In this document: piece after piece, positions 5,932-59,216 of the stretch
Layout of the letters: each line of letters starts with the position of its first letter
Position numbering within the stretch: position 1 is the first letter of the stretch
Origin: Raillietiella orientalis
Lineage: Eukaryota
Length of the DNA: 64,000 bases
Assembly (NCBI GenBank): GCA_036172245.1
Contig: JAYWIR010000090.1
Location: 62,001 to 126,000, forward strand
Direction: 5' to 3'
Made by a program: the position numbers and the translations under genes
Notes under the pieces: model-generated
What the model was told of the DNA's origin: nothing
Databases searched by the model: none
Seen by the model: the letters and a program-made list of their open reading frames with translations, nothing else

Positions 5932-8900
5932 ACGAGCGCAGGAGATCGAACGCATCTACGGAGGGCGGCTGTGGTATCGGTGTGGAACATCGAGAAGTTG
6001 TGGTGTCGCCTACCTGCTTCGGCCCGCCATCGAGGCCGCCGCCCGTGGAGTTCGGTTCTACGATCACGGTCGTGTCGGCCAGCTGACTCTCAGCTGGTCC
6101 GACTCGATCGACTTGATCGTTACGAACGTTTACGCCCCGAGCGGAGCAAACCTGACCAACAGGAGGGCCACGAAAGAATATTTCCTTGCCCTCCATCGCG
6201 ACTGGTTGACCGAGGCAGGCGTGCGGAATGCCCATCTGGTTGCAGGCGATTTTAACGTTCGTCTGAAACCGGATGGGCCGAATCAGAAGCGTGACCTGGT
6301 CAAGGAGGTGTGCGCGGCGGTGCACACTTGTAATTTGTTGGCCAGTGTACCAGGGATGGAGGACAACATCGATCACGTGTTCCTTGACGAGCACCTGTGC
6401 ACTCGTGTGGGCAGGCGCTGCAAGTTGCCGTGCGAGTTGTCCGACCATCGACCAATCGTGATTGAAATCCATCCGCGTGACAGGGGCCCCCCTTGTCAGC
6501 GTGGCGTTTGCCAGGGGACTGGGTGAAGATCCCGGATGCGACGGAAAATCTCCGCACGTTTATACGGAGCTTTAGGATGCAGACACTTCAGGATTGGGAC
6601 CGCTTCAAACGGTCGGTCCAGGAGTTCTGCGACCAGTTCCCTCTGCACCGCCTACCTGCGGGATTTGGGGACGGGGTACGTATCTGGAGGCTCGCCGTTA
6701 CGTTAAGACCCCGGACATCCGCAGGCTGGCGGAATACAAAGCGGGAGCCGAGAGGCAAGTTTGGCAGTCAGGATCGGCCAGCTTGCTGGACGATCAGGGC
6801 CAGGAGCATTCGGCACCCGCTCAGATCCGCGGTCTGCTGCGGCGTTTTTACTTCTCCCTGTACGCAAGAACGCCTCCCGAGCGGGATTTCTCACGAATCC
6901 TGCTTCCGGAAGGCGCTTCTGCGATCGGGGAAGAGGAGAAAAAGTCCATCGACGAGTCTTTCACGATGGGCGAGATCATCTCTGCCATCGGAAAGCTCAA
7001 GAGGCGAAAGGCTCCAGGGGAGGACGGCCTGTCCGCGGAGTTTTATCAAACTTTCGCTGCTGAGCTAACCCCCCTGGTACATCAACTCACGTTGCTGATA
7101 CGCGAGACAGGTGACGTTCCCGCCTCGTTTCGTTCGGCAAAGGTGCGGCTTCTCCCTAAGGGAGGAGATCTGAGGAGCATGAGCAACTTTCGTTCCATCA
7201 CAATAGTGAATGCGGATGCCAAGTTGATAGCTAAGGTTTGAGCTGAGCGCTTGCGACGGGTTGCAAACGCCTTCATCAGCCCGGAACAGACGTATGCTGT
7301 TCCGGGGCAAAGCATGGAGGCGAACCTGTTCCGCGCTTCCACCTGGCTAGAGCTCCAACACGAAAGGGGCTTGATGCGCACCGGGAATTCCGGTGAGTCC
7401 GTCAGTCATGCGACGGATGGTCGGATGGGGGAGGGGGCACTTGCGGTCGCTGCCGACTTGCGTAAACCATTCGACAGCGTCGACCAGAAACTCCTGCTGG
7501 AGCTTTTGGAACGCTTGGGCTTCCCGGCCTCATTATTGGCCTATCTGCGCTCTAGCTGGCGCGATGCGCAAATCAATGTTACTTTCAGCGGGCATACTGT
7601 TCACGGCGTGCCGGTGCGACATGGAATCCAACAAGGAGACAGCCTGAGCCCCTTGCTCTTCAGTACCTACTTTGAGTTGGTACTGAAAGCGTACAGGGAA
7701 ACTCTGGCGCACCTGCCGCATGAATGCGCCGGAACGCCTGCGGTTTCAGCATATGCGGACGACCTCCTGCTACTGCTCCCTATGTCCACCCCGGCTTTGG
7801 CGGTCGAGAAGTTCTTCGACCTGCTGAATCGAGGAACCGGGCTTACGGTGAACATGGCTAAGTCGTCCGTGATGCCAGTTGGTGCGGAGTGGGTATGGCA
7901 GCAGGACTGTTTCCGTTTGGGGATCCCCACGGTGAGGTACTTCAAGTACCTTGGTGTGCCGTTGGGGGACTACTCCTTTGCGGAAGCGTGGTCCGGCTGC
8001 CTTCAAAAAGTAGAGACAGCTATCGGCCCGTTCCGAGGCGGCAGGTTTTTCCTGCCTGAACGGGCCACGGTTTGGAACATGTTCGCGGCCCCCCTCCTTC
8101 GCCCCCTACTTTTTGTGTGCCCTACCCCGTATCAAATTAGGACACGGACTAGGGGCCTTATACGGAAAGCCCTCTGGGGCAACCGGAGGCCTCGCGTCCG
8201 GCTCAAAGACTTGTGCGCTCCACGCAGGGACGGTGGACTTGGTCTCCTGACGTTGGAGCGCATGGAGCGACAGCTCCAATTCAGAAAACTTGCCCTTGTG
8301 GCAAAGTTTCGGACAGCACCCTGGTGTGCACCAGCAAGACTCCTTGCTCACAGGACAACCGGCTGCTTCGGATTGACTTCAATTTTGGTAGCCAACGAAC
8401 GCAGCCTGAACCATTGTGGTTATCAGCTGCGGGATTTGGTTGCTCTGATGAGAGACAACCCTGTGATCTCCTGCATCCCAGCGGACTGGACTACCTGGCT
8501 TCAGGAGTCCGTATCCGCATGGGCGAAGATCAATGGCACCAGCGATGAGGACTTCTCCTGCCTCCGCAGAGGGAGGCACGCCGGTCAGCCACTCCAGGAG
8601 ATCGTTTCCAACCCACGGAAACTTCTGTGGGCTTCCTTCACCTTCCTTGCCCCAGTGCTGCCCTTCCTCAGGGAAGTTCGGGACAGCCACCAACAGGCAT
8701 CGGGGGAAGTGTCCTGCCTCATCGGAGGCAGGAAAAAATCACTGAAGGCGTGGACGCCGAGGGAACTAGCGGACGAGGGAACTAGTACCCGGAGTGTCCC
8801 GCCGAACGGACTTTTACGCTGGGGCGCGCTGCTCGGTATACCTCCGGAGGAGGTGAAGTGGCCCCCAGCGTCATGGGACAACGTCACCCTTCCCCTGCAG

Positions 8901-20022: not shown

Positions 20023-23000
20023 TGCGGGGAATCGCGTCTTCTCGTCGTCTGTCCGTAACGTGTTGGAACGTGAACGGACTGCAGAACGACGAGAAGAGGC
20101 GATGAGTAGCCAACGCCCTGCGCCATTTCGACCTCGCGCTCCTGCAGGAGATTCTCGTAATCGCCGACGAGCAGGCAGCCGAAATCGAGGAGCGCGCAGG
20201 CGGAAGGCTACATTGGCGGTGCGGCGGCGCACACACGTGCGGCGTCGCGTTCCTCGTAAGAGGAAAAATGGCGGAAGCGGTGCGTAGTGTTCGTTTCGAT
20301 GACGACGGACGGATAGGCCAGCTTGTCATCAAGTGGTCCGAGTCCATCGATCTCGTCGTTACGAACGTCTACGCGCCGAGTGGCTCTCGCTACCTCGAAG
20401 AAAGAGTAGCTTTCCTTGGTGAGGTGCAGAGCCACTGGCTCAACAACTCCGGTTTCCAAGTGGCGCACCTCGTCGCTGGGGACTTCAACGTCCGCCTGCT
20501 CTCCGACGATTGGAGCCGCCCGAGGGCGCGCGCGCTGCCCCTCGATATGTGCGCGTCCGTGCACGCTGCCAACTTGATGGTCAGCGAACCTGGAATGGAA
20601 AGATCGCTCGATCACGTTTTCCTCGATGAAAACCTGCATTCGCGTGTGGGTAGGAGAGGAAGATTGTTGACTAAGCTTTCTGACCACCACAGGTTGGAGT
20701 TTGAGATCCTTCCGCCAGGCAGGGGGCCTCCGTTGCAAAACTGGAGGATGCAGGCGGATTGGCTTAGCAAACCGGAGGCTGCGGAGCATCTACGAAGATA
20801 CCTTCGAGGCATTGCCATTCAAGAACTTGCGGACTGGGAAGATCTCAAAAGATCTGTCCGCGAGTTCTGCTGCCAATTCCCCTTGCACCGGCTTCCACGC
20901 GGTTTCGGAGAGGGCGTGGGCAACAGTAGAGACTTTCTGCAGGCCCGCACGTTTTCGAGACGCGCCGATGTCGGGCGTCTCGGAGAGAACAAGGCGAGGG
21001 CCGAGCGCCAGGTCTGGCAGTCCGGAGCAGCATGCCTGTTGGACGACAAGGGCCAGGAATGTTCAGCCCCAGCCGAAGTACGCCGCATTGTGAGACGCTA
21101 CTACTCCTCTCTGTACGCGGAATCCCCGACGGAGGATATTCTTTCTGAGATACTCCTGTCTCAGGATGCTCGTGTTGTCGGCGAGGAGGAACGCAAACGT
21201 CTCAACGAGCCCTTCACGGCGGATGAATTTTCGTCCGCAATCGCTGGGCTGAAGAGAAGAAAGGCGCCAGGTAAGGATGGGCTCCCTGCAGAGTTTTATC
21301 AGTGCTTTGCAGTGGAGCTCATTCCCTTGATGCTGAAACTCGCGACGCTGATGAGTGAATCCGGGAATGTCCCTGATTCCTTCCGCTCAGCGAAGGTGCG
21401 TCTCCTGCCGAAAGGCGGAGACTTGCGTCAACTTAACAACTGGCGTTCGATCACCTTGGTGAACTCGGACGTCAAGTTGTTTTCCAAGCTGTGGGTCGCG
21501 CGGTTAGGAAGTATCGCGGAATCTGTGGTGAGCCCGGAACAAACCTACGCGGTTCCGGGACGATCCATGGAGGCGAACATCCTTTTCGCGCGTACATGGA
21601 TGCAGCTGCAGGAAGTTGTGGCGCAGCAAAGCCAGGCTGCTGCGAAAGTCACTGCCGCAGGCAAGAAGAACAGGCGCCGACGGCAGGAGGGAACGCCAGG
21701 TGCCTTGGCGGTCGCGGTCGATCTCCACAAGGCGTTCGACTGCTTAAACCAGAAGCTGCTTTTGGAGCTTATGAAACGCCTTGGGTTCCCGGCGCAACTC
21801 CTGCTGTATTTGCGAGCGTGCTGGAGCCACGCGTCAACCTGCATTACTTTCAGCGGCTGGCGCGTGTATGGCATTCCCGTTCGTAGATGCATCCGACAGG
21901 GCGACAGCTTAAGCCCGTTGCTCTTCAGCATCTTCTTTGAGTTGGTGCTAAGTGCATACAGGCTGACGCTGTCTCACTTGCCAAGCTCCTGCCCGGGAAC
22001 GCCTGCCGTGGCCGTCTACGCTGATGACCTGCTTCTTCAGCTCCCCATGTCCACCCCGGCGTCCAGTGTCGAGGATTTCTTCGACCTGATTCGTCGGGGA
22101 GCGGGCGTGAGCGCGAACAGATAGAAGAGCGTGGTCGTTCCTGTGGGTACGTCGTGGGAGGGGCAGCCCGACTGGATCCGCCTGGGGATCCCCACGGGCG
22201 GGTACTTTAAGTACCGTGGCGTTCCGTTGGGCGCATTCGGCGCAGCCGAAGCGTGGGCGGACTGTCTTCAGAAAGCAGAGTTGGCCATCAGCCCGTTCTT
22301 TAACGGCAAGTTTACCTTGCAGGAACGGGCGACTATTTGGAACACCTTTGTGGCCCTTCTCCTCCGTTCCCTGTTTTTTGTTTTGGACCCCCCCTATGCG
22401 GCAAAACAGCGGGCTAAACGCCTGCTCAGGAACGCTCTCTGAGGTCCGGCGAGATCCAGAATCCGCCTCAAAGATTTGTTTGCTCCGCGTCGGGATGCTG
22501 GTTTAGGTATCTTAGCAATGGAGCGAATCGGACTGCAGGTGCAGTTCCGACTGCTGGCACTGTGTGCCCAGCTATGGACATCCCCCCTGTGTGTGCCAGC
22601 CCGCATTCTCCTGCGGAGATGAGCCGGCAGCGGAGGATTTCTCTCGCTTTTGCCGGGCACTCAATACAGGAAGCGGGGTTTCGGGTTTCCATTGCGGCAG
22701 TTGACCGCACTTCTGGGAGCTCACTCGTGGATCTCCTGCCGCCCAATGACTTTGAAGTTTGGCGGCAGGAGTGTGTGGAATCCTGGACGGCGTTCCAAGG
22801 AATACGCCCTGAAGATCTTCACCCCCTGCGTCAATTTTTTCCACGATCCTTGGAAGAAGTACTGCAGGACGAGGTGAAGTTTTCTACCCTGGCTGCCACG
22901 CCTCTTGCAGCAGCGCTGTCTGCCCTCAGGGCAAGAAACGACAGTGACCAACCGGCGAGCTGGGTGGTTTCCTGCACGATAGCGGGAAAAACCAAAATCC

Positions 23001-23613
23001 TTGGCGCCTGGAAGACGAGTGAGTTGGCGGACGCCGCCACTCCTCGTGTTACTGCAAAGGGACTCCTCCGGTGGGCAGAAGAACTTACTGTAACCCCCGA
23101 AGAAGTTGTAGTCCCTCCACAGTGTATTGACAGTTCGCTGCTCCCCCTTGCTTGGAAACAAGCCGTGCTGCTTTTCGTTCACTGGGGTTTTCAGTGCAAC
23201 GAGCGTTGGCATCGTGACTCCGGGGGACTTGCATCTGCGAATTGCGTTCGGTGCGGATCGCGGAGTCGATTCCGCACCTACTTCTGGACTGCGGTGTCCT
23301 ACAAGGACTGTGGCGTAGGCTGGCAACAGCACTAATGCATCCCGTGGACACCGCAAGAGACTTGCTGCGACGATTCTTCACGCCGAGCGGGCTGTCACTA
23401 AGCGCAAGGATTGCAACCATCGGTTGCATACGAGCGATAGTTTCCGTCCGCCAGGCGTTGGTAATCAACGGACAGCACCAAGAGGTAATCAGCAAAGCAT
23501 CCTTCAACATAGGAGCATCCGCTAGATGGCCTCATTTGACAGAGGAGACAAAAAGGAATCTCGCCGCAATACACCGCCGGTTTACACACCCTAAGCAGCG
23601 GCCAACGCGGTGA
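20022..23613 (+). pseudogene. C2 ORF2 (APE-RT-CCHC), disrupted
   Basis: ORFs 20268..22124 (GDFN, LDH, SDH, YADD), 22131..22442, 22562..23335, 23242..23613. Confidence 0.92.
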
Positions 23614-23896
23614 TCATTGCCCTACCCTCCATAAACTAATTTTGTATTTTCTTTTCACACCCGCGTCCCCATAGGCTCCGGAACATTTTAGGTGCTCATC
23701 GTTTAAGTCCCCGTGAGTACGGAGCCTAACCAAAAACCCTTGACCCTTCCCTCCAGTTTTTGATTTTTGTTTGTTTCCCCTCATTCCCCCCACGCTGCGA
23801 GCGGTTTGTTTACCAGGTCTGCGTGCCGGGAATTTTTCTATGTTCTCTGTCGTTCTGTTGGTTGCAGACATTGTCCCTGACCAGTTTATTATTATT

Positions 23897-23926
23897 AATA
23901 AACGCCCCGGCGTGACCGGGTGATAA
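23897..23926 (+). other. Conserved 3'-terminal AATAAA + CCCGG-N5-CCGGG hairpin (example copy)
   Basis: Present at all 11 visible 3' ends (variant form in family A; AATGAA in H). Confidence 0.8.
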
Positions 23927-24268
23927 ATTTCAATATCCGTCTGCTAACAGGTGAGCCAGAAACACAAGAAAACGCGATGAACGAGTTGTGTGCCGCCATG
24001 CGTGCGCGAAACTTGTTCGCGGGTGAGAAGGGAATGGTCCGAAGCATCGACCACGTCTTTCTCGACGCTGACCTCTGTTCACGGTCGGCCAACGGGAGAG
24101 GGTTGCGTCGACGTTGTCGGACCATTCCCGGTTAATTTTCGAGATGCGGCCTCGCGACAAGGGACCGCCATCCAGGAATTGGCGTCTGCCGGGGGACTGG
24201 ACGCGACTCTCAGGTGCGAAGGAACACCTTCGCGAATACCTGAGAGGCGTCACGCTCCGGAATCTCCA
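23927..24268 (+). mobile_element. B1 continuation (rest of the APE domain), then interrupted by D
   Basis: Resumes (D)FNIRLLTGEPETQE..IDHVFLD, homologous to B2 29493-29835. Confidence 0.9.
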
Positions 24269-27185: not shown

Positions 27186-29915
27186 TTGGCGAGCGGACGT
27201 GTTTTTCCTGAGCTCCCGAGCGAGTCGACAGGAAGCGGTTTTTTCTTTGTGTGTGTTCGTGTGGAACATCGTTGGTGTCCGATGGCAGCGATGCCTGAGG
27301 ACACCACGATGGACGTAGGTGGGGGGAGGCTTGCCCACCTCCACAGCCTGCAGAATCAGGGGCGTCCTCCCCGGAATCATCCCTGGCAACGCCGAGGACG
27401 TGGAGCGCCATGGTTTCCGCGCCGAGCGCGGAAACCTTGGCAGAGCAAGCGGCCTACAGGGCCTCCGGATATAAACCATCTCTGGTTTATAAGGTAGGAC
27501 CCCTGTTTGATGGTCGCACCGCCCGGGCTTTTAATAGGGCACTGCAGGATTTCCCTGTACGCGAGGAGGATCTTGACGGCCTCTCCGTACCAGCGGGGGG
27601 CAGCGCGTGGAGGTCGTCTGCAAAGACGTAGCCTTAGCACAGCGACTCATTAACACCCCGCTGAATGTGGATGGCCGGAAGATCCTTCCGGTTTGCATGG
27701 ACCGCTCCGTAGTGGTCCATCTAACCGGCATTACGAACCGCATGACGCGATCTGCGGTGAGTAATGCACTAAGTAAGTACGGTGAGATACACACGTTGTG
27801 GCCAAAGCCTACCATTTTCGATGGCTTTAATAGCCATTTCGGAGGCCAGGCCGCTGCGCGTGTAACAGTTAATGAGGGCAGTGGCTTGCCCCACAAACTG
27901 GAGGTCGCAAAGGAATCCGTCGACCTCTGCTACGTGGGGAAACATTGCTATTTTGGATACTCCGATGCAGTAGGGCACTTGCGCAAGCGGTGCCCGAATA
28001 TCGAGTGCCACATGTGCGGAGTTAAGGGACACGTACCTCGTGTGTGCCCCAAACGCCCCACCCCGGTGCAAACTGCTGCCAAAAAGACGCAGGCCAAAAA
28101 AGGAAAAAAGGTCGAAAGACCTTCTCGGGAAACTGGCCGGCCCCAGTCGCCATCTCCTGTTCCTCCCACCCAGACGTCGGAGGAAAAACCCGCTGAAGAC
28201 GCGGGAGAGGAAGAAGGATGGAAGCTGGTAAAGGCCAGAAAAGAAAAAAAAGTTCCCCCCGTGGAACCCGCGAGAGCGAAGAGAGAAAAGAGAGCGAAAC
28301 CGAATAAACCCGGTCCGCGCTCGAAAACTCTTCGCGAGTGCACGGTGGCACTCGAACGGATTGCCGTCCCCGAGGCTGCCACCCGGGGCGACGAGCCTCC
28401 CCTCGCCGTTTCCGCCGCGCCCGAGGTTCGCGACGACGAACCCTCTGTTTGCACAGAGGGTGAGCCGCGCGAAGCGCGCGCCGAAAGCGAGGACGCGGCG
28501 TTCGCGCAGGCGGAGGAGGAGCTCGCGGCCACGCTGGCCGAGCGTGAGAACCCCTCACGCAAGGCCGTGCGAAGGCCGGCTCCGCCGAAGAAGGCCCCCG
28601 CAGGTGAGTGCGGCCTGGGGGCCGGAAGTGCATTTTCCTCGTCGGAGGTACCCCCCCGGAAGTCGGGACGCAAGTCCCAAAAGCCGAGGAGGCGCCTCCC
28701 CTCCACCAGCGAGGAGGAGAAGCAGGAAGCCGACGGCAGCGTGGGAATCCCGGAGGGGGAATCCCACGCGCGGAAGTCGTCGAGCAGGAAACCCCCATGG
28801 AGTAGGGTGAGCAGGGGGGCGAAGTCCTCCTTGAAGGCGCGGACCCTGTACAGCCCACCCGTATGGAGGAGGGCCAACAGGTAGGCGCGACCCCACCGGA
28901 GGGTGACCCGCCCGACGCGCCGTCACCGATGGAGCAGGGGGACCAGGTGCTCGAGGCACCTGTCCCTCCTGCCCCAACTAGCGTCCCGCCCCAACAAGTG
29001 GCGGACGCCGCAGAGCCGATTTCCCAGGAATAACACCTGGGCTCGCCTGTCGCCGTCGAATCCGCGTGGCCAGTTGGAACGTCAACGGGCTGCGCGACGA
29101 GGGCAACAGACGAGATACGGCCGACACCCTGCGTGAGTTCGACCAGGCCCTGCTGCAGGAGATCCACGTGATCACCTCGGCAGACGTCCAGGAGATCGAG
29201 ACAATCGCGGGGGGTCGACTGTATTGGCGATGCGGCGCCCGCAACACCTGTGGGGTCGCGTTTTTCGTGAAGCCGGCCATCGACGCTGCCGTGAAGGGCG
29301 TACTCTTCGATGACGACGGTCGGGTCGGTCAGCTCACTCTCAGCTGGTCCGACTCGATCGGATTGATCGTCACGAACGTGTACGCCCCAAGCGGGAAAGA
29401 AGGATACAGCCACCGTACCAAGTTGCTGGAGACCCTGAAGCGCGACTGGCTGGCCGATACGAACGTACGGAAGGCACACCTGATAGCTGGGGACTTTAAT
29501 CTCCGTCTGCTGTCAGGTGAGCCCGAAGCACAAGAACGCACGGCCAACAAGTTGTGCGCTGACATGCGCACGCGCAACTTGTTGGTGGACGCAGAGGGAA
29601 TGGACCGCAGCAGCGACCACTTCTTCCTGGATGTCGACCTGTGCTCGCGGGTCGGCAAACGATGAAAAGTTGCGTCGACGCTGTCGGACCATTCCAGGTT
29701 AATCGCCGAGGTATGCCCGCGCGATAAAGGACCCCAGGCCAGGGCGTGGAGGTCGCTTGAGGACTGGAAGAGGCTCTCAGGTGCGAAGGAACACCTTCGC
29801 GAATTGCTGAGAGGCGTCACCCTCCGCAGTCTCGAAGATTGGGACATTTTCAAGGCCTCGGTCCGCGAGTTCTGCGAAGAGTTCCCCCTGCACCGCCTGC
29901 CCTTCGGATTTGGGG
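27186..29915 (+). mobile_element. LINE family B, copy B2, 5' segment (ORF1, APE), antisense in D
   Basis: Starts TTGGCGAGCGGACGTGTTTTT; ORFs 27607..28884 and 29066..29665; TSD CCCCAAAT(C/T)CC at 27175-27185 and 34666-34676. Confidence 0.92.
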
Positions 29916-34665: not shown

Positions 34666-35404
34666 CCCCAAATTCCGCAGGTAGGCGATGCAGAGGGAAC
34701 TGGTAGCAGAACTCCTGGACCGACCGCTTGAAGCGGTCCCAGTCCTGAAGTGTCTGTATCCTGAAGCCCCGAATGAACGCGCGAAGGTGTTCCGCCGCGT
34801 CGGGAAACTTCAGCCAGTCCCCTGGCAGACGCCACGCTGACGAGAAGGGGCCCCTGTCGCGCGGATGGATCTCGAGAACTAGCGGGCGATTTTCGGACAG
34901 CTCACACGGTAACTTGCGGCGCCTGTCCACGCGACGGCGAAGGTGCTCGTCAAGAAACACGTGGTCGATGCTGTCTTTTATCCAAGGTGCACTGGCCAAC
35001 AAATTACAGGTGTGCACCGCTATGCACACCTCGTTGACCAGGTCACGCTCCGGATTCTGCCCATCTGGTTTCAGGCAAACGTTGAAATCTCCTGCAACCA
35101 GATGGGCATTCCGCACGCCTCCTTTGGTCAGCCAGTCGCGCCGGAGGGCAAGGAAAAACTCTTTCCTCGCCCTCCTGTTCATCAGATCAGCGCCACTCGG
35201 TGCGTACACGTTCGTGACGATCAGATCGATCGAGTAGGACCACCTGAGAGTCAGCTGGCCGACACGACCGTGATCGTCGAACCGCACGTCCCGAGTTGCG
35301 GCCTCGACGGCTGGCCGAAGCAAGTAGGCGATACCGCAACTTTTCAGTTTTTCACACCTATACCATAGCTGCCCTCCGGAGATCCGTTCGATCTCTGGCG
35401 CTCG
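34666..35404 (-). mobile_element. D upstream segment (APE domain), interrupted by E2
   Basis: ORF 34523..35323: NVYAP, GDFN, IDH ... FPLHRLPAEFG; joins 27185 across the B2 TSD. Confidence 0.9.
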
Positions 35405-36906: not shown

Positions 36907-39900
36907 AATGGTGGGTTTCCTTCTGTTTGGTCCCGGGCGTCGTCTTCTACCCTCTTCAGGATGAATCGGTATGTCCAGGCTTGGCTTTTCCCACAGTTTC
37001 TAATGCCGATTTCCCTCTTCAGGAGCCCTTATAGGATCTCCATCGGTGGTGCGACTCTTCTGGCTTTCCTCATTTTCCACCACCGCGCAAGTATGGCGGT
37101 GATGAAGAGGGCGATGGTCGTCCTCACCATGGGATTGTAACAAAGAACATCACCATCTCCCTGGAACATCCCGGCGAGGATCTCCATTAAGGGCCTGGTG
37201 GTGAGTCCGATGATCCATTTCAGGATCAGCCAGTCATGCAGCAATGTGGGACACGTAAAGACGTGAAGTCTCGTGTCGTTGTCTCCACATGCTGTGCAGT
37301 CTCGATCTTCCCGTCTTCCGGTGTAGTGCTGCAATCGGGACCCACTCTGGATTCCTCCATGATATAACATCTGGAGGTCCTCCCGGGTGCCCGGCGGAAG
37401 GTCACTCCTCCAGAGCGTCGTGCCAATCGCTAGCAGGTTGATCCGGTCACTCCCGCAGCGATCGGCGGCTTCCTGGAAGGGACTGATGTCACGGTCTTCT
37501 TCCCGAATTAATCTTCAGAGGTTTGTTTTGAATACCCTGGACCACGCAAAGTCATTGTGGTTGATCCAGACCTCGCGGGTGATGTGGGTAAAACTTGATA
37601 ACATCATCTCTATATACCTAAGTATACGAGTGTGATGTAGGTACCCTCCTCGTTTCCACTCCTGGATTCGTTGAAGGGTAACTCTGGACCGCTTGTGGAA
37701 CCAGTTTCTCGTGACAGGGAGCATCCAAGGAATCACCAGGATGGACTCGTCCTGCCAGAGTTCCCTACTTCTCGGCACGATCTTAATTTTGTGCTTTCGC
37801 ACCAGCCGTTGCTTCCTCGTCCAGGTTGGGTCGATGTTTTTCCATTCGCCTGCTCAGCCTAGCAGCGCAGTCATCAGGCCTTTCGAGTAGTTCAACGACA
37901 ACGCGGAGGACCTGTGCGTTGCATACGGCCAGTCATCATAGTGAGTGGTAATGTCTAGGATTTTTGCTTATCTATGATTTCTATGGAGTGTGCAAGCGAC
38001 TTCATCCCGGAACCGCCTTCTTCCCTGGGACGACACAGGGGTTTCAGTCTTACTCTTGGACGATAGTGGCCCCAGAGTGTTTTTCTTTGCAGCTTGTCGA
38101 ACTCCCTCGTGGTGTACTTGTTCATCTTCGCAAAGCCCGCCCCGGAAAGAACTTTTAAAAGGAGTACTCCGTTCCATATGTTGGCCTTTCGCTTCATTCC
38201 AAGGTCCGTTCGGGTGTACTTGGCTGCTTCCTTGGCCGTTTTCCCTAGGATCTCGGTCCACAGTAGCTTCGACGCGGAGACGTCGCCAATGTAGACACCC
38301 GGGTAATTGGCCTTGTTCACCGTCCGGAATCCTGTCCTCGTTTGAGCTGAGAGATCGAGGATTCCAACGGGCAAGAGCTGGCTTTTCTGGGCGTTGATCT
38401 CTAGACCAAGGCCTTGATCCATCAGGTCTACCACATCCAGAAACGCCCGTTGATTTCTATCTCCCTTGATAAAGAAGAGTAGATCATCAGCGTATGCCAG
38501 ATGGGTAAGACGCTGGCCATCGATTGCTATGCCTTGGAGTCATCCGCTCTTCTCGATAATGGACGACAACGCCTCCATGTAGATGACGAACAGCATCGGA
38601 CTTAGCGAATCGCCCTGCCGGACTCCCCGTTCCATCCGGATTGCTGCCGTCTTCTGGCCGTTTATTTTGATTCGGCAGTACTGGTTCTAGAGCACCACCC
38701 TCACGAAGTTGCTGAAGTGTTCCGGAAGGGCTAGCTTCTCCAGAACCTTCAGCAGCATCCCATGGTCGATGGAGTCGAAAGCCTTCTCCATGTCAGTGAA
38801 CACCAGCACCAGATTCTCGCCGACGTATCGGCTGAGTCCGACGGTGGCCTGGGCACACTTGACATTGTCCGACATGTGACGTCCAGGAACTGCACACGTT
38901 TGGACCGGAGAGATGAGCTTCGACATGACCCTGCCTAAGCGGTTGGACCAGATCTTCGCCAACCACTTGGCATCGGAGTTCAGGATTGCGATTGGCCTTT
39001 ATTGAGCGATCTGGGTTGGGTCGCCTCCTTTCGGCAACAATCTCATCCTCCTCTCGTAGAAGGATTCAGGTAGTCTGCCTTCTTCACGGATGCAGAGGGT
39101 TAACTGGTGGAACAAGGGCATGTAGGCATACAGGTACCGACGATAGTGCGTGATGGGTACACTGTCAGGGTCCTCCGCCACATCCTGCGCAGTTTTTCAG
39201 AAGCAGTCTTGACCTCGTCTTCGGAGAATTCCTTCTCCAGTCAGTTCCGCTGGATGTCGTCGGTCCTCTTCTCGAGGTAGCTCAGAAAGGCCTGTTGACT
39301 AAAGCGACAGAGATGTTGTCGCCTAAAGTGTTTCGTGTAATGCCTTTGAAAGGCATTCACGATGTCCTCAGACGACTGTCGCTTTTGACCGTCGTACTGG
39401 ATGCAGAAGATATCTGTTGCCAGATTTCTCTTCTCCAGCACACCGACTTCCCCTTTTATGTTCTTGAAGACGTACCGACTCTCGTACTGATCGAAGTACT
39501 TTGAGAGTGAGCGGTCTTGGATGTTTAGCTCCCGGTACGCCTCCTGCCTCAAGCGCCTATCCTCGAATTGCATATTTGCAAACAGGAGTATCCTGTGTTT
39601 CAAGCTGTACCAGTCGGTGACTCTTCTGATTTTTGTGGTTCTCAGAATCGTCTCCAGGACCTCCTGATGTCCAGGATGTGTCTCGAACCAGGAGGACATG
39701 CTGATAAGCGCCGCCCTGGTGCCTTGCCTCCGCCAAGGATTCTCCGTTCTTAGGGAAAACCGCACCAGGGGGTGATCGGATACCGTGGTCATAATGTCTC
39801 GAAAACCCTGAATGCGATTCCCAAGTTCGGTGCTGTGCAGGACGTGATCGATCGGCTTGTGACTTGCAGTTCGCCACACCAGTCCGAACTCGTCGGATAA

Positions 39901-40413
39901 CCGCCGATACGCCGTCCTTCCTCTGGCGTCTTGTGAGTGAGTGATCTCATCCAATATGTTGAGATCGCCAGCAACAATCACGACGTCCTTGGGGGCAAAC
40001 TTTTTAAGGAGTGCTCCATGCAGCGCCTCCACACAACGATGTTTCAGGCTGTGCGGCCCGTACACGTTCAGCAGGATGAGGTGAACAGTAGCGGACCAGG
40101 CCAATCGCACGCCGATGATTCGTCCGGGTTGGGGACAGAACACTTCCAGAATACTGGGGGCCAAGTTGTTCTTCTTAAGGACCGCCACGCCCTGCATGTT
40201 CCGTTCTCTCTCGCTGACGAACATCTGCCCGTTGAATCGCCGTTTTATTTGCTGACTAATCTCTAGACCCATCTTGTGGGTCTCCTGCAAACACACTATG
40301 TCTTGTTGTGCGATGGTCCGCACAATCCTTTTTCTTTTTCCCTGGTCGACCATACCGTTTACATTCCAGGAGGCGATGTTCAGCCTCCTGGCGGTCGATA
40401 GGGAAGGGGCCAT
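36907..40413 (-). pseudogene. A2 ORF2 (APE-RT-CCHC), disrupted
   Basis: ORFs 39241..40518, 38687..38962, 37955..38434, 37515..37802, 37029..37370. Confidence 0.9.
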
Positions 40414-46800: not shown

Positions 46801-48138
46801 GGCAGGAGGTTCATAGGGAACTCGTCGCAAAATTTCCGGACCGAGCGCTTGAAGCGGTTCCAGCCCTGAAGCGTCTGCAAGCTGAAACCTCGTATGAATC
46901 CGCGGAGATGCTCCGCGGCTTCCGGAAGTTTCAGTCAGTCCCCCGGTAGGCGCCACGCAAATGACGGTGGACCCCTATCGCGTGGGCGCACCTCGAGTAC
47001 GATCCGGTCATGGTCCGACAGTTCCGACGGCAACTTGCCGAGCCTGCCCACGCGTGAGCATAGGTGCTGGTCAAGAAACACGTGATCTATGCTGTCGGCC
47101 AGTTCCGGATCTCCCGCGAACAAGTTGCGCGTGTGCATCTCTGCGCACAGTTCGTTCACGCGGTCCCGAAGTGTGTCGGACGCACCTGACAGCAGGCGCA
47201 GGTTAAAGTCACCTGCGATTAGGTGGCGCTTTGCGCAATCTTGCTTCGTCCAGATATTCGCGCCTCAGGGTAAGGAAGAAATCTCTCCTTGCCTTTGCCC
47301 TTAGCGCGTCGCTGCCGCTTGGGGCGTACACGTTGGTAATGACCAGATCGATGGAGTCGGACCACCTGATGGTCAACTGCCCGACGCGACCGGCACTATC
47401 GAACCGTACGCCCTTTGCCGCAGCCTCGACAGCTGGACGAAGCAGGAACGCGACACTGCAAGATTTAACGGTGCCGCAACGCCACAGCAGCCGTCCACCC
47501 GAGATACGCTTGATCACCGTTGCTTGATCTGCGGAGATCACGTGGATCTCTTGCAGCAGCACCAGGTCGAACGATGCCATGGTGGAGGCCACGTCTCGTC
47601 TCTTGCCGTCGTCGCTTAGCCCGTTGACGTTCCAACAGGCAATTCGCAGACGGCGGCAAGAGGCGATTCTCGGCATTAAGGCTGGGAACGTGGCGTTGCA
47701 GCACCTGTCAACGGACAGGTGGGAGAAACGAGTAAGGGGACCGCGGCTATCTCAGGCACTTGAAGCACCTGGAGCACAGACTCTACCCTTTCCCTCCCTC
47801 CGGGGTCGTAGCGTGAGGTTACTTCTCGAGGAGAGTCCCCGGAGTTCCCCACTTTATTGGCACGCTCGCTTCCCTCAACTATCACTCCCTTTTCCACGGA
47901 CGGGATAATTTTGCGGGTAGCCTTCTTCGTGAGATTGGCCTTCTGACGGGAGGCCGCGATGCCGCAGGCTGTGTTTTCCGCCTCTGCGTCAGAGTTCGGA
48001 ATCTCCGACTTCTTGATCGAGGTCGGACGCCTTAAGGCCTTTTTCGCGAATTTAAGGGGACCCTGCAAGGACGCAGCGAGCTCCTCCGCTGCTCGCTCAA
48101 AGGCGACGTCGTGGGGAATGCGCTCGACGACAACGGCC
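43864..48138 (-). mobile_element. LINE copy H (end of ORF1, all of ORF2, 3' UTR), antisense in E2; interrupted in ORF1 by I
   Basis: ORF2 starts 47676 (TAATG); pieces 47209..47676, 45906..46880, 45268..46023 (YADD), 44473..45234, 44110..44466; ends AATGAACGCCCCGGCGCAACCGGGTGAAAA. Confidence 0.92.
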
Positions 48139-51220: not shown

Positions 51221-53390
51221 TTTGTCACCCTGATATGCCGGGGCATTTATTATTCTAATTTTTTACAAAAATCAGATAATAAAGTCTTTAAAAAGATGTT
51301 TTCTGTGGGGAAACACTGGGTTCTCCCACCTTGCTCGACGTGTCGGTTGCTGGTGCAAAGACCGGTTAGGTCCATTCCCGAGGCGCAAGGGAAGGGAAAA
51401 CTAGAACGAAAACAAACAAACAGAAAGATAACGGGGAGGGAAACAGTTGTATGGGGAGAGGAAGGGGGCAGGGAAGGGATCACTGGGCGCCTGGTTCGGT
51501 CCTCCGCATCCTGTTGAGGATGCAGTCGAATTCGGTTTTTATTGTGGAAGGTAGACGCCACCTTGTCGCCGTCTCTAAAGAGATCGTCGTCCAGTGGATG
51601 GCGTCCCTGCATCTTGGGCCTCTTCTTCTGGCGTGCCACCTTTGCACAATGACGCGCAAGCAGCAGAGAACTGCTAGAGACGCAGCAAGGCGCAGGCCGT
51701 CACGCAGAAAGAGGCGACGGTAAATTTCCTTAGGGTCGCCTACTGGAAGATGGAGGATTGGGGCGATTTGACTCCAGAGTCCATCCAGGGCGACACACTC
51801 GAGGGTGAGATGCAAGAAGGTTTCTCTTTCTCCGCACTCGACACAGCGGCCATCAACATTCCCCAGTGTCTAGTGAGACAGGCGTGCTCTGCTTAACAGT
51901 CCCCAGTGCAGAAATAGGAACGCCGTCTCCTGCCACTTCAACGGTAGTGTGCCGCAATCCCAACACTCTGGGGGCCACTTTACCTCCTCCGGAGGTATCG
52001 CGAGCCGCACTCCCCAGCGCCCAAGTCCGTGAGGAGGGACGCTCGGGATGGCAGCGTCCGCGAGCTCCCGAGTCGTCCACGCCTTTAAAGGTTTTTTCCT
52101 GCCTCGGAAGAGGCAGGACACTTCCCACGATGCCCGCTCGTTGCTGCGCCGAGTGTTTTTTAGAAAGAACAGAACGGGGGCAAGGGGGCTGAAAGAAGCC
52201 CACAGAAACTTCCGGGGCGTGTTGATAATATCCTGCAGCGGCTGTCGAGCGTACGGTTCTCGTCGTAGGCAGTTGTATTCCGCCTCGCTCGTGCCGTTGA
52301 TCCTAGCCCACGCGGAAGCTGACTCCTGAAGCCAGGCAGTGCAGTTCGCGAGGAGGCAGGAGATCCAGGTATTCTCCCTCATCAGGGCGACCATCTGGCG
52401 CCAATCGGGGCCACAGTTAGAGAGGCTGAGCTGGTAGGCCACGAAGATCGAGGACAATCCTTCGCAGCCGGTCGCTCTTCTGGCGAGGAGCCGTGCGGGA
52501 TCGCACAATGGCGTCATCTATAAGCTAGCCGCAAGGGATAACTTCCGAAGTGTTGTCTGTAGTTGGATGCGCTCCAACGTAAGGAGGCCCAAGCCACCAT
52601 CCCTGCGTGGAGCGAACAAGTCTTTCAATCGGACACGCGACCTCGCTGTGCCCCAAAGGGCAGTCCTCAATAGGGTTTTGGGTCCGTCTCTGTATGATGA
52701 AAGGGGCGGGGCAAACAAAAAGTAAGGGGCGAAGGAGGGGGGCCGCGAACGCGTTCCACACCGCGGAGCGCTCCTGGAAGTAAAACTTGCCGTTCCGAAA
52801 CGGGCCGATCGCCAGCTCCACCTTTTGGAGACGGTCGGACCAGGCTTCTGCAACGCAGAAGTCCCCCAACATAACGCCAAGTTACTTGAAGCACCTGCCC
52901 GTGGGGATCCCCAAGCGGATCCAGTCCGGCCGTCCGGCCCACGCCGTATTGTTTAAAAGTAGTGGTGATGTTGGAACGATGGAAGATTTCTCTCTGTTCA
53001 CCTCGAGGCCCGTCCCGCGGCGCAGCAACTCAAAGAAATCTTCGAGCGCCGACGCCGGGATGGACCCGGGGAGCAGGAGCAGAAGGTCGTCGGCGTAGGC
53101 CGACACGGCAGGCGTGCCGGAACACGAGCTTGGCAGGGTTGCTAGACTCTCCCTGTAAGCCCTCAGCACCAGCTCGAAGTAGATGCTGAAGAGCATGGGG
53201 CTCAGACTGTCACCCTGCCTTATGCCACGCCGAACCGCCACGCCGTACACGTGCCGGCCGCTGAAAGAGATGTTTATTAGAGCGAAGCGCCAGCAGGAGC
53301 GCAGGTAAGCCCGGAAGACGGCCGGGAATCCCAAGCGTTCCAGGAGCTCCAGAAGGAGTTCCTGGTCGACGCAATCGAACGCTTTACGTC
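51221..53390 (-). mobile_element. LINE copy J, 3' segment (from RT motif KAFD to the 3' end), antisense in I
   Basis: ORFs 52882..53334 (YADD), 51870..52517, 51480..51815 resemble the F C-terminus; ends AATAAATGCCCCGGCATATCAGGGTGACAAA. Confidence 0.9.
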
Positions 53391-53482
53391 GGCTAGAGCG
53401 GACGTGTTTCCTCGGTGCTACTCGTGCCGGGAACCGTCCCTAGGTGTAGGCTTCGTGTGTGGTGGTGGTCGATCAGGCTGCA

Positions 53483-55201
53483 ATGCCTGACGCGACCACC
53501 AGTACGTGTCAGGGGGCGGTGGCAACGTCGCCTCCTGAAGAAATGGAGTGCCAGGTGGCGGCGGCAACGTCGCCTCTAGAGAAGGTGGAGTGCCAGAGGG
53601 CGGCGGCAACGTCGCCTTCAGTGGCGAAGGAGGTGGGGGCGTCCGCCCCCACAAGACCGGTCCCCGCTGCAGCGCGGGCGTGGAGCGCCGTCGTGTCGGC
53701 GCCATCGCCTGCAGCCGCGGCGGAATTATCTGCCTATGTGGAAGAGGGGTATAACCCATCACTATTCTACAAGGTAGGAAATTTGTATTCTGCTGAGAGT
53801 GCGCGCGCCTTTTCGAAGGGAATGCGCGCTCTCGATGTTAAAGAGGAGGAGCTCTGCGCTATGACCATTCGTAGCGGGTGTCAGTACGTTGAGGTCATCT
53901 GCAAACATGCAGAGCTGGCCCAACGACTGCTTAAAACCCCCGTGGTAATGGGGACACGCAGGCTCCTTCCCGTTACGGCGGACCACAGTATAATGGTCCA
54001 CCTTTTAGGAGTTACCGCGCGGATGCGGAAAGAACAGTTACGCGCCGCGTTGGGAAAAGAAGGCACGGTCCATGCAGTATAGACCAAGCCTAGTCCTTTC
54101 GAGGACTATACCACAGTTCAGTGCGGCCTCACGGCTGCCCGTGTAACCGTTCGGGAGGGCTCTACCCTTCTCCACAAACTGGTGGTCGGCGGAGAAAGCG
54201 TCGACCTCTGGTACGTGAGGAAGCCCAAATACTGTGGCTTCTGCAACACGTCGGGACACCTCAAAAGGAGGTGCCCCAACGTACGGTGCCTGGTATGCGG
54301 GACAATGGGCCACACGAAGGTAGTGTGTCCACAATCCGCTGTGCGTGTGGTTTCCGCGAGGAACCTAAAAAAACGCGCGCGGCTGCTACAGAAAAAACTG
54401 GCGGCGAAGGCTGCCGCTCAAGCTGTGCCACCCACTCCCGTGGTCCAGGCCTCAGCCGACACCCCGACAACGAATGCCGAAAAGATTGACAAAAGCGGTC
54501 AGGTGTTGGAATGGCAAGAAGTCACAGCGAAAAAGAAAAAAAATTCGAAGAAAAAACGACGAATCGAAAAAAAGCTCGCCTACCAAAATAGAAAACAGCA
54601 GGTTAGCGAGACTTTAAAAGAATGCAGCGTCGTCGTGGAATGCGTCCCCGCAGAACGCCGCAAGGTAGAAATCGCTGCTACCGACGAGCAACCCACTGTT
54701 GAAAATGTCAACAGCGTGGGGAGCGAACCGGCGGAAGCGTCCGTCATCGAGACCGTGATCGATGACGCCGCTTTCGAGCGTGCGGCGGAGGAGCTGGCTG
54801 CATCGCTGCAGCCAGACCCCTCCAAGGCTGGCAAAAAGGCAGTGAGGCGTCCGGCCTCCACCGAAGAGTCGGTAACTTCCGACCCCGAAGCGCAGGCCGG
54901 AAACCAAGTTTCCATCTCCGCGGCACCCCGCCGGAAGGCTGGAAGGAAGTCCAGCAAACCCCGGAAAGCCCCTCTCCAGGTCCAAGGCGTGGAGATCACT
55001 TCCGACTGCGAGGGTGCCATGAGCGTGGGAGAATCCCGGGAATCGTCACCCGAGAGACCACCACGCACTGACACGGAGGAGATGGAGGGGGTTGAAGCCG
55101 GAAAGGTACCCAAGGTGCCTGAGGAGGCTGAAACCCTAATGGTCATCTCACCCGCCTCTTCGGAGGCGGGTTCCCCCACACCGTCATCTTCCCGGCAGTA
55201 A
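53483..55201 (+). pseudogene. F2 ORF1 (2 zinc knuckles), single in-frame TAG at 54080
   Basis: ORFs 53459..54082 and 54182..55201 are in the same frame; CGFCNTSGHLKRRC, CLVCGTMGHTKVVC. Confidence 0.88.
53506..53631 (+). repeat. 42-bp x3 coding tandem repeat in F ORF1
   Basis: CQGAVATSPPEEME / CQVAAATSPLEKVE / CQRAAATSPSVAKE; core GGCAACGTCGCCT. Confidence 0.85.
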
Positions 55202-58200
55202 TGCCGGGAATCTCCTCCCGCCGTCGTCTGCGCATCGCCGTTTGGAACGTGAACGGCATGACAGACGCCGACAGGAGACGAGACATGGCCGCCATTCTAG
55301 GATCGTTTGACCTTGTGCTGCTGCAGGAGATCCATGTGATTTCTGCAGAACAAGCGCAGGAGATCGAACGCATCTACGGAGGGCGGCTGTGGTATTGGTG
55401 TGGAACATCGAGAAGTTGTGGTGTCGCCTACCTGCTTCGGCCCGCCATCGAGGCCGCCGCCCGTGGAGTTCGGTTCTACGATCACGGTCGTGTCGGCCAG
55501 CTGACTCTCAGCTGGTCCGACTCGATCGACTTGATCGTTACGAACGTTTACGCCCCGAGCGGAGCAAACCTGACCAACAGGAGGGCCACGAAAGAATATT
55601 TCCTTGCCCTCCATCGCGACTGGTTGACCGAGGCAGGCGTGCGGAATGCCCATCTGGTTGCAGGCGATTTTAACGTTCGTCTGAAACCGGATGGGCCGAA
55701 TCAGAAGCGTGACCTGGTCAAGGAGGTGTGCGCGGCGGTGCACACTTGTAATTTGTTGGCCAGTGTACCAGGGATGGAGGACAACATCGATCACGTGTTC
55801 CTTGACGAGCACCTGTGCACTCGTGTGGGCAGGCGCTGCAAGTTGCCGTGCGAGTTGTCCGACCATCGACCAATCGTGATTGAAATCCATCCGCGTGACA
55901 GGGGCCCCCCTTGTCAGCGTGGCGTTTGCCAGGGGACTGGGTGAAGATCCCGGATGCGACGGAAAATCTCCGCACGTTTATACGGAGCTTTAGGATGCAG
56001 ACACTTCAGGATTGGGACCGCTTCAAACGGTCGGTCCAGGAGTTCTGCGACCAGTTCCCTCTGCACCGCCTACCTGCGGGATTTGGGGACGGGGTACGTA
56101 TCTGGAGGCTCGCCGTTACGTTAAGACCCCGGACATCCGCAGGCTGGCGGAATACAAAGCGGGAGCCGAGAGGCAAGTTTGGCAGTCAGGATCGGCCAGC
56201 TTGCTGGACGATCAGGGCCAGGAGCATTCGGCACCCGCTCAGATCCGCGGTCTGCTGCGGCGTTTTTACTTCTCCCTGTACGCAAGAACGCCTCCCGAGC
56301 GGGATTTCTCACGAATCCTGCTTCCGGAAGGCGCTTCTGCGATCGGGGAAGAGGAGAAAAAGTCCATCGACGAGTCTTTCACGATGGGCGAGATCATCTC
56401 TGCCATCGGAAAGCTCAAGAGGCGAAAGGCTCCAGGGGAGGACGGCCTGTCCGCGGAGTTTTATCAAACTTTCGCTGCTGAGCTAACCCCCCTGGTACAT
56501 CAACTCACGTTGCTGATACGCGAGACAGGTGACGTTCCCGCCTCGTTTCGTTCGGCAAAGGTGCGGCTTCTCCCTAAGGGAGGAGATCTGAGGAGCATGA
56601 GCAACTTTCGTTCCATCACAATAGTGAATGCGGATGCCAAGTTGATAGCTAAGGTTTGAGCTGAGCGCTTGCGACGGGTTGCAAACGCCTTCATCAGCCC
56701 GGAACAGACGTATGCTGTTCCGGGGCAAAGCATGGAGGCGAACCTGTTCCGCGCTTCCACCTGGCTAGAGCTCCAACACGAAAGGGGCTTGATGCGCACC
56801 GGGAATTCCGGTGAGTCCGTCAGTCATGCGACGGATGTTCGGATGGGGGAGGGGGCACTTGCGGTCGCTGCCGACTTGCGTAAACCATTCGACAGCGTCG
56901 ACCAGAAACTCCTGCTGGAGCTTTTGGAACGCTTGGGCTTCCCGGCCTCATTATTGGCCTATCTGCGCTCTAGCTGGCGCGATGCGCAAATCAATGTTAC
57001 TTTCAGCGGGCATACTGTTCACGGCGTGCCGGTGCGACATGGAATCCAACAAGGAGACAGCCTGAGCCCCTTGCTCTTCAGTACCTACTTTGAGTTGGTA
57101 CTGAAAGCGTACAGGGAAACTCTGGCGCACCTGCCGCATGAATGCGCCGGAACGCCTGCGGTTTCAGCATATGCGGACGACCTCCTGCTACTGCTCCCTA
57201 TGTCCACCCCGGCTTTGGCGGTCGAGAAGTTCTTCGACCTGCTGAATCGAGGAACCGGGCTTACGGTGAACATGGCTAAGTCGTCCGTGATGCCAGTTGG
57301 TGCGGAGTGGGTATGGCAGCAGGACTGTTTCCGTTTGGGGATCCCCACGGTGAGGTACTTCAAGTACCTTGGTGTGCCGTTGGGGGACTACTCCTTTGCG
57401 GAAGCGTGGTCCGGCTGCCTTCAAAAAGTAGAGACAGCTATCGGCCCGTTCCGAGGCGGCAGGTTTTTCCTGCCTGAACGGGCCACGGTTTGGAACATGT
57501 TCGCGGCCCCCCTCCTTCGCCCCCTACTTTTTGTGTGCCCTACCCCGTATCAAATTAGGACACGGACTAGGGGCCTTATACGGAAAGCCCTCTGGGGCAA
57601 CCGGAGGCCTCGCGTCCGGCTCAAAGACTTGTGCGCTCCACGCAGGGACGGTGGACTTGGTCTCCTGACGTTGGAGCGCATGGAGCGACAGCTCCAATTC
57701 AGAAAACTTGCCCTTGTGGCAAAGTTTCGGACAGCACCCTGGTGTGCACCAGCAAGACTCCTTGCTCACAGGACAACCGGCTGCTTCGGATTGACTTCAA
57801 TTTTGGTAGCCAACGAACGCAGCCTGAACCATTGTGGTTATCAGCTGCGGGATTTGGTTGCTCTGATGAGAGACAACCCTGTGATCTCCTGCATCCCAGC
57901 GGACTGGACTACCTGGCTTCAGGAGTCCGTATCCGCATGGGCGAAGATCAATGGCACCAGCGATGAGGACTTCTCCTGCCTCCGCAGAGGGAGGCACGCC
58001 GGTCAGCCACTCCAGGAGATCGTTTCCAACCCACGGAAACTTCTGTGGGCTTCCTTCACCTTCCTTGCCCCAGTGCTGCCCTTCCTCAGGGAAGTTCGGG
58101 ACAGCCACCAACAGGCATCGTGGGAAGTGTCCTGCCTCATCGGAGGCAGGAAAAAATCACTGAAGGCGTGGACGCCGAGGGAACTAGCGGACGAGGGAAC

Positions 58201-58774
58201 TAGTACCCGGAGTGTCCCGCCGAACGGACTTTTACGCTGGGGCGCGCTGCTCGGTATACCTCCGGAGGAGGTGAAGTGGCCCCCAGCGTCATGGGACAAC
58301 GTCACCCTTCCCCTGCAGTGGCAGGAGACGGCGTTGCTTCTGCTCCACTGGGGACTTTTAAGCAGAGCACGCCTGTCTCGCTGGACATCGGGGAATGTGG
58401 ATGCTAGTTGTGCAGAGTGCGGGGAAAGGGAGACTTTCCCCCACTTGATTCTGGAGTGTGTTGCCCTTTACGAAATGTGGGACAGACTCTCGTCGATCCT
58501 CAACATTCCGGAGAGTGACCCAAAAAATTTATCCAGACGCCTTCTGACGCGAGACGGCTTGCCAGCCTCCGGGAGCGTAGCAGTGCTCTGCTGCATACGC
58601 GGTATCCTGGAGAAGTGGACCGCGTCTAGGAGAGGAAGGACCAGCCGGAATGCCATCCACTGGGCAGCGATCTCCTTGGAGAAAGCGTGCCGTTGGCGCC
58701 GACTTCAAAAACATTTACCGGCACTTGTTCGCATCCGAAATCGGATGCAAAGGCCTGCTCACGGCGCACCGTGA
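55201..58774 (+). pseudogene. F2 ORF2 (APE-RT-CCHC), same lesions as F1
   Basis: ORFs 55201..55944, 56012..56659, 56669..58774. Confidence 0.92.
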
Positions 58775-59038
58775 TCCCCTCCCTCCCTCCCGCTCCCTGA
58801 AAACATTGCCCTCCAGACGTTTTTCTTTTTTTGTTTTGTTTTCTGTTTATTTTCCCCGTCCCGGCGCCAGTGAAGGACTTTATCGGCCTCCGGGTCGATA
58901 AAGACAAGTGCTATTGAACTTCAATGAACGTCTGACGTCCGAAAAAGAAATTTTTTTTTTAACAACAAAGACCTTATTACAAAATTTTGTAATGTCAGAA
59001 TTTCAGTAATAAATGCTCCGGCTTACCCGGGTGAAAAA

Positions 59039-59216
59039 CCTGAGCTGGGCTGGAGCGTTCTTGGCCCTGATGGTCCAGCAAGCAGGCCTAGGCTAACTGC
59101 CAGGCCTGCCTCTCCGCCACAGCCTTGAATTCTGCCAAGCGACGGACGTCGGGATGACTGGAATAACGGCGGGCCGGAAGGTATGCCCGCTCGTGCTGAC
59201 TCCCCCGCCGAATCCC
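59039..59216 (-). mobile_element. Host ORF2 fragment (duplicate of 9621-9798; possibly the upstream continuation of J)
   Basis: Matches 9621-9798 at offset 49,418. Confidence 0.85.

Follow-up and report, generated by a model that had tools for sequence, protein, structure and literature searches.

The window, i.e. the whole 64,000-nt stretch of DNA that was analysed, comes from Raillietiella orientalis (assembly GCA_036172245.1; genome size 210 Mb) and corresponds to positions 62,001-126,000, forward strand, of contig JAYWIR010000090.1 (contig C90). It contains nested APE-type non-LTR retrotransposons, of which the ORF1 carries two CCHC knuckles and the ORF2 an endonuclease (EN; PF03372), a reverse transcriptase (RT; PF00078) and a zf-RVT zinc motif (PF13966). 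This is an L1-type layout, and no RNase H is present. The lineages were named by letter: A, B, C, E, F (F1/F2), G, H and J. The element under study, an F copy, exhibits the following features.

53375..53388, + strand: 5' target-site copy, antisense to the KAFD codons of a sister RT; the host element lies on the - strand, from 53388 downwards
53389..55201, + strand: 5' leader, with the shared GGACGTGTTT motif at 53400, and ORF1 (53483-55201) with CCHC knuckles
55201..55890, + strand: F1 EN domain of ORF2, APE-type (PF03372), with 8/8 catalytic/structural residues
55555..55662, + strand: lengthened P118-to-GDFN segment, 35 aa, equivalent of the L1 alphaB1-betaB3/N118 loop and candidate target-reading surface
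55675..55785, + strand: F1 spacer from GDFN to IDH, 37 aa, without the D-R/K loop motif, the DxWR connector and T192/F193
55756..55785, + strand: putative remnant loop of 10 residues (L185-N194, with a Pro-Gly turn) at the betaB6-betaB5 position, coil in the model
55891..58774, + strand: remaining ORF2 (RT PF00078, zf-RVT) with frameshifts and a stop, chimeric
59008..59040, + strand: 3' end of the J-lineage type, without poly(A), made up of AATAAA, a GC-rich stem-loop and a short run of A; the CCTG flank next to it is also J-type

The ORF1 presents one internal stop, and its stop codon overlaps the ORF2 ATG in TAATG (55199-55203), which suggests termination-reinitiation for ORF2. The 5' ends of the elements have GGACGTGTTT in common, about 11 bases inside. 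The junction seen at 53375-53388 recurs in intact F elements, with a target-site duplication (TSD) of 13-15 bp. The window F copy itself is chimeric, being F1-like (94-98% to locus L031) up to ~57400 and J-like (94-98% to L084) from ~57600; the crossover at 57400-57600 corresponds to the end of the RT domain, and further chimeras were seen at C101 159535 and L078. Intact ORF2 frames of 1,215-1,217 aa are found elsewhere in the genome (L031, L032), where the F1 EN has at least 150 matches with 66-100% identity (best 150 of 3,990 candidates scored). A repeat of 8.66 kb with 99.4% identity (5922-14581 versus 55342-64000) indicates a recent segmental or assembly duplication.

The F1 EN matches PF03372 with an E value of 7e-14. 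The catalytic residues known from L1 (N14, E43, Y115, D145, N147, D205, D229, H230) are all found in the window copy, as N15, E42, Y116, D155, N157, D196, D220 and H221. On the + strand, GDFN (55663-55674, D145/N147 of L1) and IDH (55786-55794, D205 of L1) are separated by 37 residues. The human L1-EN (PDB 1vyb) presents 56 residues in this spacer, the YTFF...YSK hairpin included, in agreement with the value of about 56 aa given in the first-pass annotation. The latter had also reported spacers of 35, 37 and 39 aa for A, F and C, without a T-(F/W/Y) strand before DH, and the same values were obtained here for the other copies of the window.

1367..1471, + strand: family A spacer, 35 aa (motif at 1355)
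39853..39957, - strand: second family A spacer, 35 aa (motif at 39969)
6257..6367, + strand: duplicate F1 spacer, 37 aa, inside the 99.4% repeat 5922-14581
34970..35080, - strand: F2 spacer, 37 aa
14576..14692, + strand: family C spacer, 39 aa (motif at 14564; element 12107-18015)
20490..20606, + strand: second family C spacer, 39 aa (motif at 20478; tandem copy, same site)
29501..29611, + strand: family B spacer, 37 aa
43523..43639, + strand: family H spacer, 39 aa (motifs decayed, coordinates approximate)
47091..47201, - strand: family E spacer, 37 aa
50632..50748, + strand: family G spacer, 39 aa

The complete spacer copies of the window measure 35-39 aa in 11/11 cases, and T-(F/W/Y) precedes DH in 0/11. 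Among genome loci L001-L148, collected mostly with short-form EN queries, 78/78 parseable EN segments are of 35, 37 or 39 aa (28/35/15), and one additional genome copy has a 36-aa spacer. With a long-spacer query, no full-length long-spacer EN was found in the 140 genome places scored, which is a lower bound; in these places the query aligned almost solely up to GDFN. The comparison with outside ENs used the best 150 hits, of which 92 are complete and parseable. Their spacer is 55-70 aa in 90/92, with 51 and 41 aa in the remaining two; DxWR is present in 87/92, and T or S occupies the T192 column in 92/92. Relatives retrieved by their RT (120, of which 54 parseable; best identity 32%) exhibit spacers of 53-80 aa in 51/54, and the three shorter ones (48, 44 and 30 aa) all have a T-aromatic pair before DH. 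In these three (P0166, P0217 and P0239, respectively) the hairpin is retained as well; in P0239 little of the connector is left, with still 14 residues at the hairpin position.

The short GD(F/L)N-to-DH spacer is confirmed as a real trait of these ENs. Decay or an assembly slip as its cause was ruled out by the 78/78 copies and the kept active sites, and ordinary length variation by the 55-70 aa of 90/92 relatives. A public contig covers 55625-55835 ungapped, from a sequencing run that is possibly not independent of the assembly. An outside fragment of 106 aa, P0001, shares 47% identity with the F enzyme (E 2.8e-39) and stops before the spacer; from this match, the short-EN clade may be represented in a second data set. 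An EN-only query, a weak search, gave no match among longer proteins.

The structure of the short EN was predicted from an 80-sequence alignment, with a pLDDT of 90.7 and a pTM of 0.90 (the single-sequence fold reached only pLDDT 38). The model adopts the four-layer EEP fold and has L1-EN as its top structural match (Foldseek TM 0.79; 1vyb, E 4.7e-16), on which it aligns with Z 25.3 and rmsd 2.6 over 213 residues, compared to Z 20.1 for TRAS1 and 19.7 for R1Bm; a feature-based lookup in the ESM Atlas returned generic EEP clusters. Residues 167-177 are predicted as a helix and 181-183 as a short strand; 184-195 are coil, and the DH strand follows at 196-201. No beta-ladder is seen in the model at the hairpin position, in a region with pLDDT ~90. 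Since the remnant is coil in the model, it would not mimic the connector helix. In the model alignment, 208 of residues 9-229 align to the wild-type L1-EN, LTx and LR1 structures alike, and the eleven unaligned residues are accounted for by insertions elsewhere, so that nearly the whole remnant would superpose on L1. The position of the loop is thus deduced from aligned-residue counts of a model together with its secondary structure.

The distance from the helix-capping Leu to the Ile before D205 is 24-31 residues in 90/92 relatives and 9-10 in the short-EN clade. In a single-gap profile test, the remnant was placed best on the hairpin-tip/return side in 15/15 lineages, with 0-1 residue on the connector side (best k = 1 in 12/15). 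As every profile placement scores below zero, this register is a preference and not a match; the HMMER placement agrees with it and sets S-x-P against L1 S195-P197. By alignment, the missing length falls mostly on the 14-residue DxWR connector and not on the loop tip, and the T192/aromatic anchor is found in 0/14 non-A lineages. The shortest common size of a natural hairpin is 10 aa (25/92 relatives), to which the remnant of 9-10 aa is close. The hairpin-side register, together with this size, indicates a stub and not a clean loss in the F-, B- and C-type ENs; according to the model, an unanchored loop of 8-10 residues would be left, equal to or slightly below that hairpin size. In three A sublineages the remnant reads W-x-[TS]-A-x-x-K-P, with T/S present without an aromatic next to it and of uncertain equivalence to T192. 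In neither register could such a remnant accommodate a protruding hairpin, and family A appears, from its sequence, to be nearest to true hairpin loss.

The first-pass annotation had proposed that the betaB6-betaB5 loop was lost. This stands for the T192/aromatic anchor and for the beta-ladder of the model, and has to be corrected for the remainder, since it is mostly the connector that was deleted and 9-10 residues remain. The predicted structure, set against L1, TRAS1 and R1Bm, shows no beta-ladder at the hairpin position, and by alignment the deletion is mainly in the connector and not in the loop itself.

The eight catalytic residues are retained in 86-94 of the 94 stop-free, near full-length EN copies. 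The dN/dS ratio between F1 and F2 is 0.26 (0.111/0.419), and dN is lower than dS in all 22 lineage pairs with an identity of at least 60%, with ratios of 0.20-0.42 in 21 of them and 0.91 in one close pair. The kept catalytic residues, the purifying selection and the TSDs suggest that the short EN nicks DNA. In the RT tree (407 columns, one sequence dropped, J left out, long branches, few named references and no outgroup), eight short-EN lineages are monophyletic with a support of 1.0 against 41 outside RTs. The family A RT falls inside this clade, yet is only ~32% like the F RT; the best RT hits are L1/Tx1-like, with an identity of at most 32%. From this tree, the short EN probably derives from one ancestral deletion.

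The 3' ends of most lineages present AATAAA, a GC stem-loop and up to 5 A, without poly(A). Those at 59008-59040, 17988-18015 and 4535-4565 are alike, the last 3-5 bases being lineage-specific. The flanks after the 3' ends start mostly with C or T, and the poly(A) tail and TTTT/AA target of mammalian L1 are absent. A scan for 3' ends yielded 119 ends, 100 of them distinct. In the F lineage, 14/16 distinct ends are antisense at the RT KAFD codons (12 by blastx, 2 by eye), and the other two are at a similar TCG word in different places; the site-specificity that had been ascribed to these elements is thereby upheld. In two contigs chosen irrespective of F ends, 4/5 F ends were at the KAFD site. 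The first four target bases differ in 3/14 KAFD junctions, and nine collinear elements join an F-type EN to KAFD-site end types. The F hosts belong to at least seven lineages, 47-68% alike, and the F2 ends are 84-100% alike. Because the hosts are dissimilar, the F2 ends near-identical, and F1 and F2 present in the same host lineages, the F insertions are separate events. Hitch-hiking by duplication behind the shared sites was ruled out by the dissimilar hosts, for the F lineage only.

The TSDs are of 13-15 bp in F (3 elements, 1-2 mismatches) and of 12, 16 and 8 bp in three other lineages. The two TSD copies of the F elements L032, L034 and C101 41086 differ at 1-2 of 14 bases. The 5' TSD copy of F2 is nearly constant, for which decay, flank exchange or RNA-leader templating are options. 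In lineage C, 5/5 ends hit a sister EN at its GDFN codons, and two further lineages have their own recurrent site (6/7 and 5/5 ends). The family C copies at 12099-23934 and 61517 lie in these catalytic codons with an 8-bp TSD, and include two tandem copies. Recurrent sites in sister ORF1/ORF2, mostly antisense, were seen for at least eight lineages (examples at window 24270, 43865, 51223, 29917, 34664 and 59040, and in loci L005-L112); two lineage pairs have a common site, at ORF2 codons ~263 and ~346.

The J lineage is loose, with 28 ends at 14 sites, 25 of them starting CC, and its spacer, in the single intact copy (L084), is also of 37 aa. The refuting case named in the first-pass annotation, the same deletion in non-specific relatives, is partly found within the clade, where the loose J lineage has the same spacer length. 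The deletion as the cause of strict specificity was ruled out by this lineage; with a short EN in strict and loose lineages alike, the deletion is a clade trait. The window chimera, which joins an F-type 5' to a J-type 3' junction, fits recombination after insertion and is thus uninformative on specificity. A C101 F-EN copy with a foreign 3' end, considered as a specificity test, was rejected for the same problem.

Compared with the human LINE-1 ORF2p EN (PDB 1VYB, 7N8S, 8SP5), these ENs are alike in fold, in the eight catalytic residues and in producing TSDs, and the ORF2 order EN-RT-cysteine-rich is the same. They differ by 19 fewer residues between N147 and I204, by the absence of the DIYR connector, T192 and F193, and by an N118 segment 9 residues longer, with an identity of ~20%. 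Unlike human LINE-1, the elements described here have no poly(A) and their targets are not T-tract/A junctions. As it works like an L1-type targeting EN but lacks one feature of the family, T192, the short EN can be considered a variant. In PMC1950540, deletion of the L1 loop (L3G) led to 0% retrotransposition and 10% nicking, an R1Bm-sized graft to 2% and 6%, respectively, and T192V was unstable. In both the short EN and the engineered L3G/LR1 (PDB 2V0S) the protruding loop is short or absent, and the family A sequence [TS]-A-x-x-K-P-I-D seems to resemble the T192-GGG-K-I-D of the engineered loops. Connector and T192 are both retained in L3G and LR1, which have almost no activity, whereas the natural form lost the connector too and is apparently under selection.

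The R1Bm and TRAS1 ENs (PDB 2EI9, 1WDU) are likewise site-specific APE LINE nucleases, with the fold match given above, but these members of the R1 clade retain an anchored beta-hairpin; the specificity of R1Bm is partly via Y98. The beta-hairpin is probably common to LINE ENs, as stated in PMC1919474, and is described as a shared feature of every solved LINE EN. In plant RTE ENs the same loop is naturally shorter, with an altered insertion signature, though by 2 residues only and with the anchor kept (PMC6007223). No natural LINE EN without this segment was found in the literature searched, a limited set of main texts. In targeting behaviour the elements are comparable to the Tx1 group, both being APE-type, L1-like and homing into other transposons: Tx1L in Tx1D, Tx1-Mar in Mariner-N4, and Tx1-8_Crp and Tx1-4_AMi in LTR elements (PMC4494074). 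The Tx1-like trait, sequence-specific insertion into a repeated target, is present here in F (14/16) and C (5/5) and loose in J, the targets being coding motifs of sister non-LTR elements. Unlike the short EN, Tx1L presents a hairpin of 11 residues (PMC1950540). That elements home into other transposons is already known from the Tx1 group.

We propose that, in a single clade of L1-like elements specific to this genome, one ancestral deletion took ~16 residues between the helix-capping Leu (L1 L177) and Ile204, comprising the DxWR connector and the hairpin base with T192 and the aromatic, plus a few residues near the D-R/K loop. A variable loop of 9-10 residues would be left at the hairpin position, in the model no longer an anchored beta-hairpin. 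The EN would keep nicking DNA for target-primed reverse transcription, and each lineage would prefer its own short, mostly GC-rich site in a sister element and not the L1 T-tract/A junction, a preference demonstrated for F and C and loose for J. The opposite wall of the DNA cleft, formed by the lengthened N118-side loop and a helix and variable among lineages, would most likely read the target, perhaps assisted by RNA-primer pairing.

The P118-to-GDFN segment varies in sequence among lineages and is 33-35 aa long in F/B/C/G/H/J, compared to 24-33 aa in 71 relatives and 26 aa in L1. In L1, N118 on this opposite loop touches the major groove, with P197/H198 in the minor groove (PMC8565326), and mutation of R1Bm Y98, at the N118 position, shifts the cleavage site/specificity, according to PMC1919474. 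The N118-side loop, being longer and lineage-variable and having an R1Bm equivalent that shifts cleavage, is therefore the first candidate. RNA tail length influences precise insertion of SART1, according to PMC7265360. Evidence against reading by this loop comes from family A, in which the segment is of normal length (28 aa), and from J, which is loose despite its 33 aa. On balance, we favour the reading that the active short EN recognises its target mainly via the lengthened N118-side loop, possibly with RNA priming too. That these are hairpin- and T192-free sequence-specific APE nucleases, retargeted in each lineage via a major-groove N118-side loop, is a tentative extension that we would not yet expect to hold. 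From the L3G and T192V defects in L1, activity of the short EN would need compensation, and none was seen here. Intact copies carry the EN, RT, C-terminal domain and 3' end as one linked set, so that their contributions are not separable.

An alternative, which we consider unlikely, is that only the connector was deleted and that the 10-residue remnant folds on DNA as an R1Bm-sized minor-groove hairpin that sets the specificity. The remnant is as long as the T192-K203 span in the shortest hairpins commonly seen (25/92) and in the LR1 graft, and both the HMMER placement on S195-P197 and the equal alignment of 208 residues to wild-type, LTx and LR1 structures are compatible with it. The outside relative P0239 moreover has a T and a hairpin without a connector, but with 14 residues there instead of 9-10. 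Against such a hairpin stand the T/S-aromatic anchor, absent in 14/14 non-A lineages when T/S occurs in 92/92 relatives, the L177-I178 strand, which takes at least one remnant residue (best k = 1 in 12/15), and the model, without a beta-ladder at pLDDT ~90. In addition, C and G have nearly the same remnant and different junction sites, and an R1Bm-sized loop was judged too short for the groove in L1 (PMC1950540).

Less probable still is a weakly specific nickase for which the RT/C-terminal domain picks the site, or the RNA 3' end does so by reading a few bases through into the old target and pairing with the nicked primer. AATAAA ~30 bases before the junction and no poly(A) would allow a transcript that ends in bases derived from the target; just before the junction, the final 3-5 bases are lineage-specific, and L1 integration is stricter than nicking, for which RNA-DNA pairing has been proposed (PMC1950540). 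The 3' stem-loop is, however, nearly identical across lineages, and an RNA hairpin common to them cannot alone distinguish their targets; the target starts with bases that differ between hosts (3/14 KAFD junctions), and EN swaps between TRAS1 and SART1 moved the target (cited in PMC1919474). No natural chimera with independent transposition that separates EN from the C-terminal domain was found among the copies examined. A catalytically crippled EN, with spread via recombination, segmental duplication or an EN in trans, would fit the L3G and T192V phenotypes in L1 and the chimeric and duplicated copies of the window, but is highly improbable in view of the retained active sites under purifying selection, of near-identical elements at one codon in unrelated hosts with TSDs, and of the 140 scored places without a full-length long-spacer EN (a lower bound).

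The hairpin in its usual form seems dispensable in another background, as a whole clade lost anchor and connector, was selected and diversified. The short ENs, 60-85% alike and with different sites, form a natural set of sibling enzymes for testing target choice by APE LINEs and bear on site-specific integration tools. If retargeting by the N118-side loop were true, they would constitute a ready panel of nickases with targets of 8-16 bp and a new recognition mode for LINE ENs.

Two observations concern other parts of the genome. At L179 (G000:C71:89900-98200), copies of an A sublineage are arrayed head to tail, with an ORF1 of its own kind after the 3' end of one copy. The 18S rRNA, which looks animal and probably arthropod-like, is represented by many truncated fragments besides a single full-length gene (contigs C8, C19-C23, C30 and C1).
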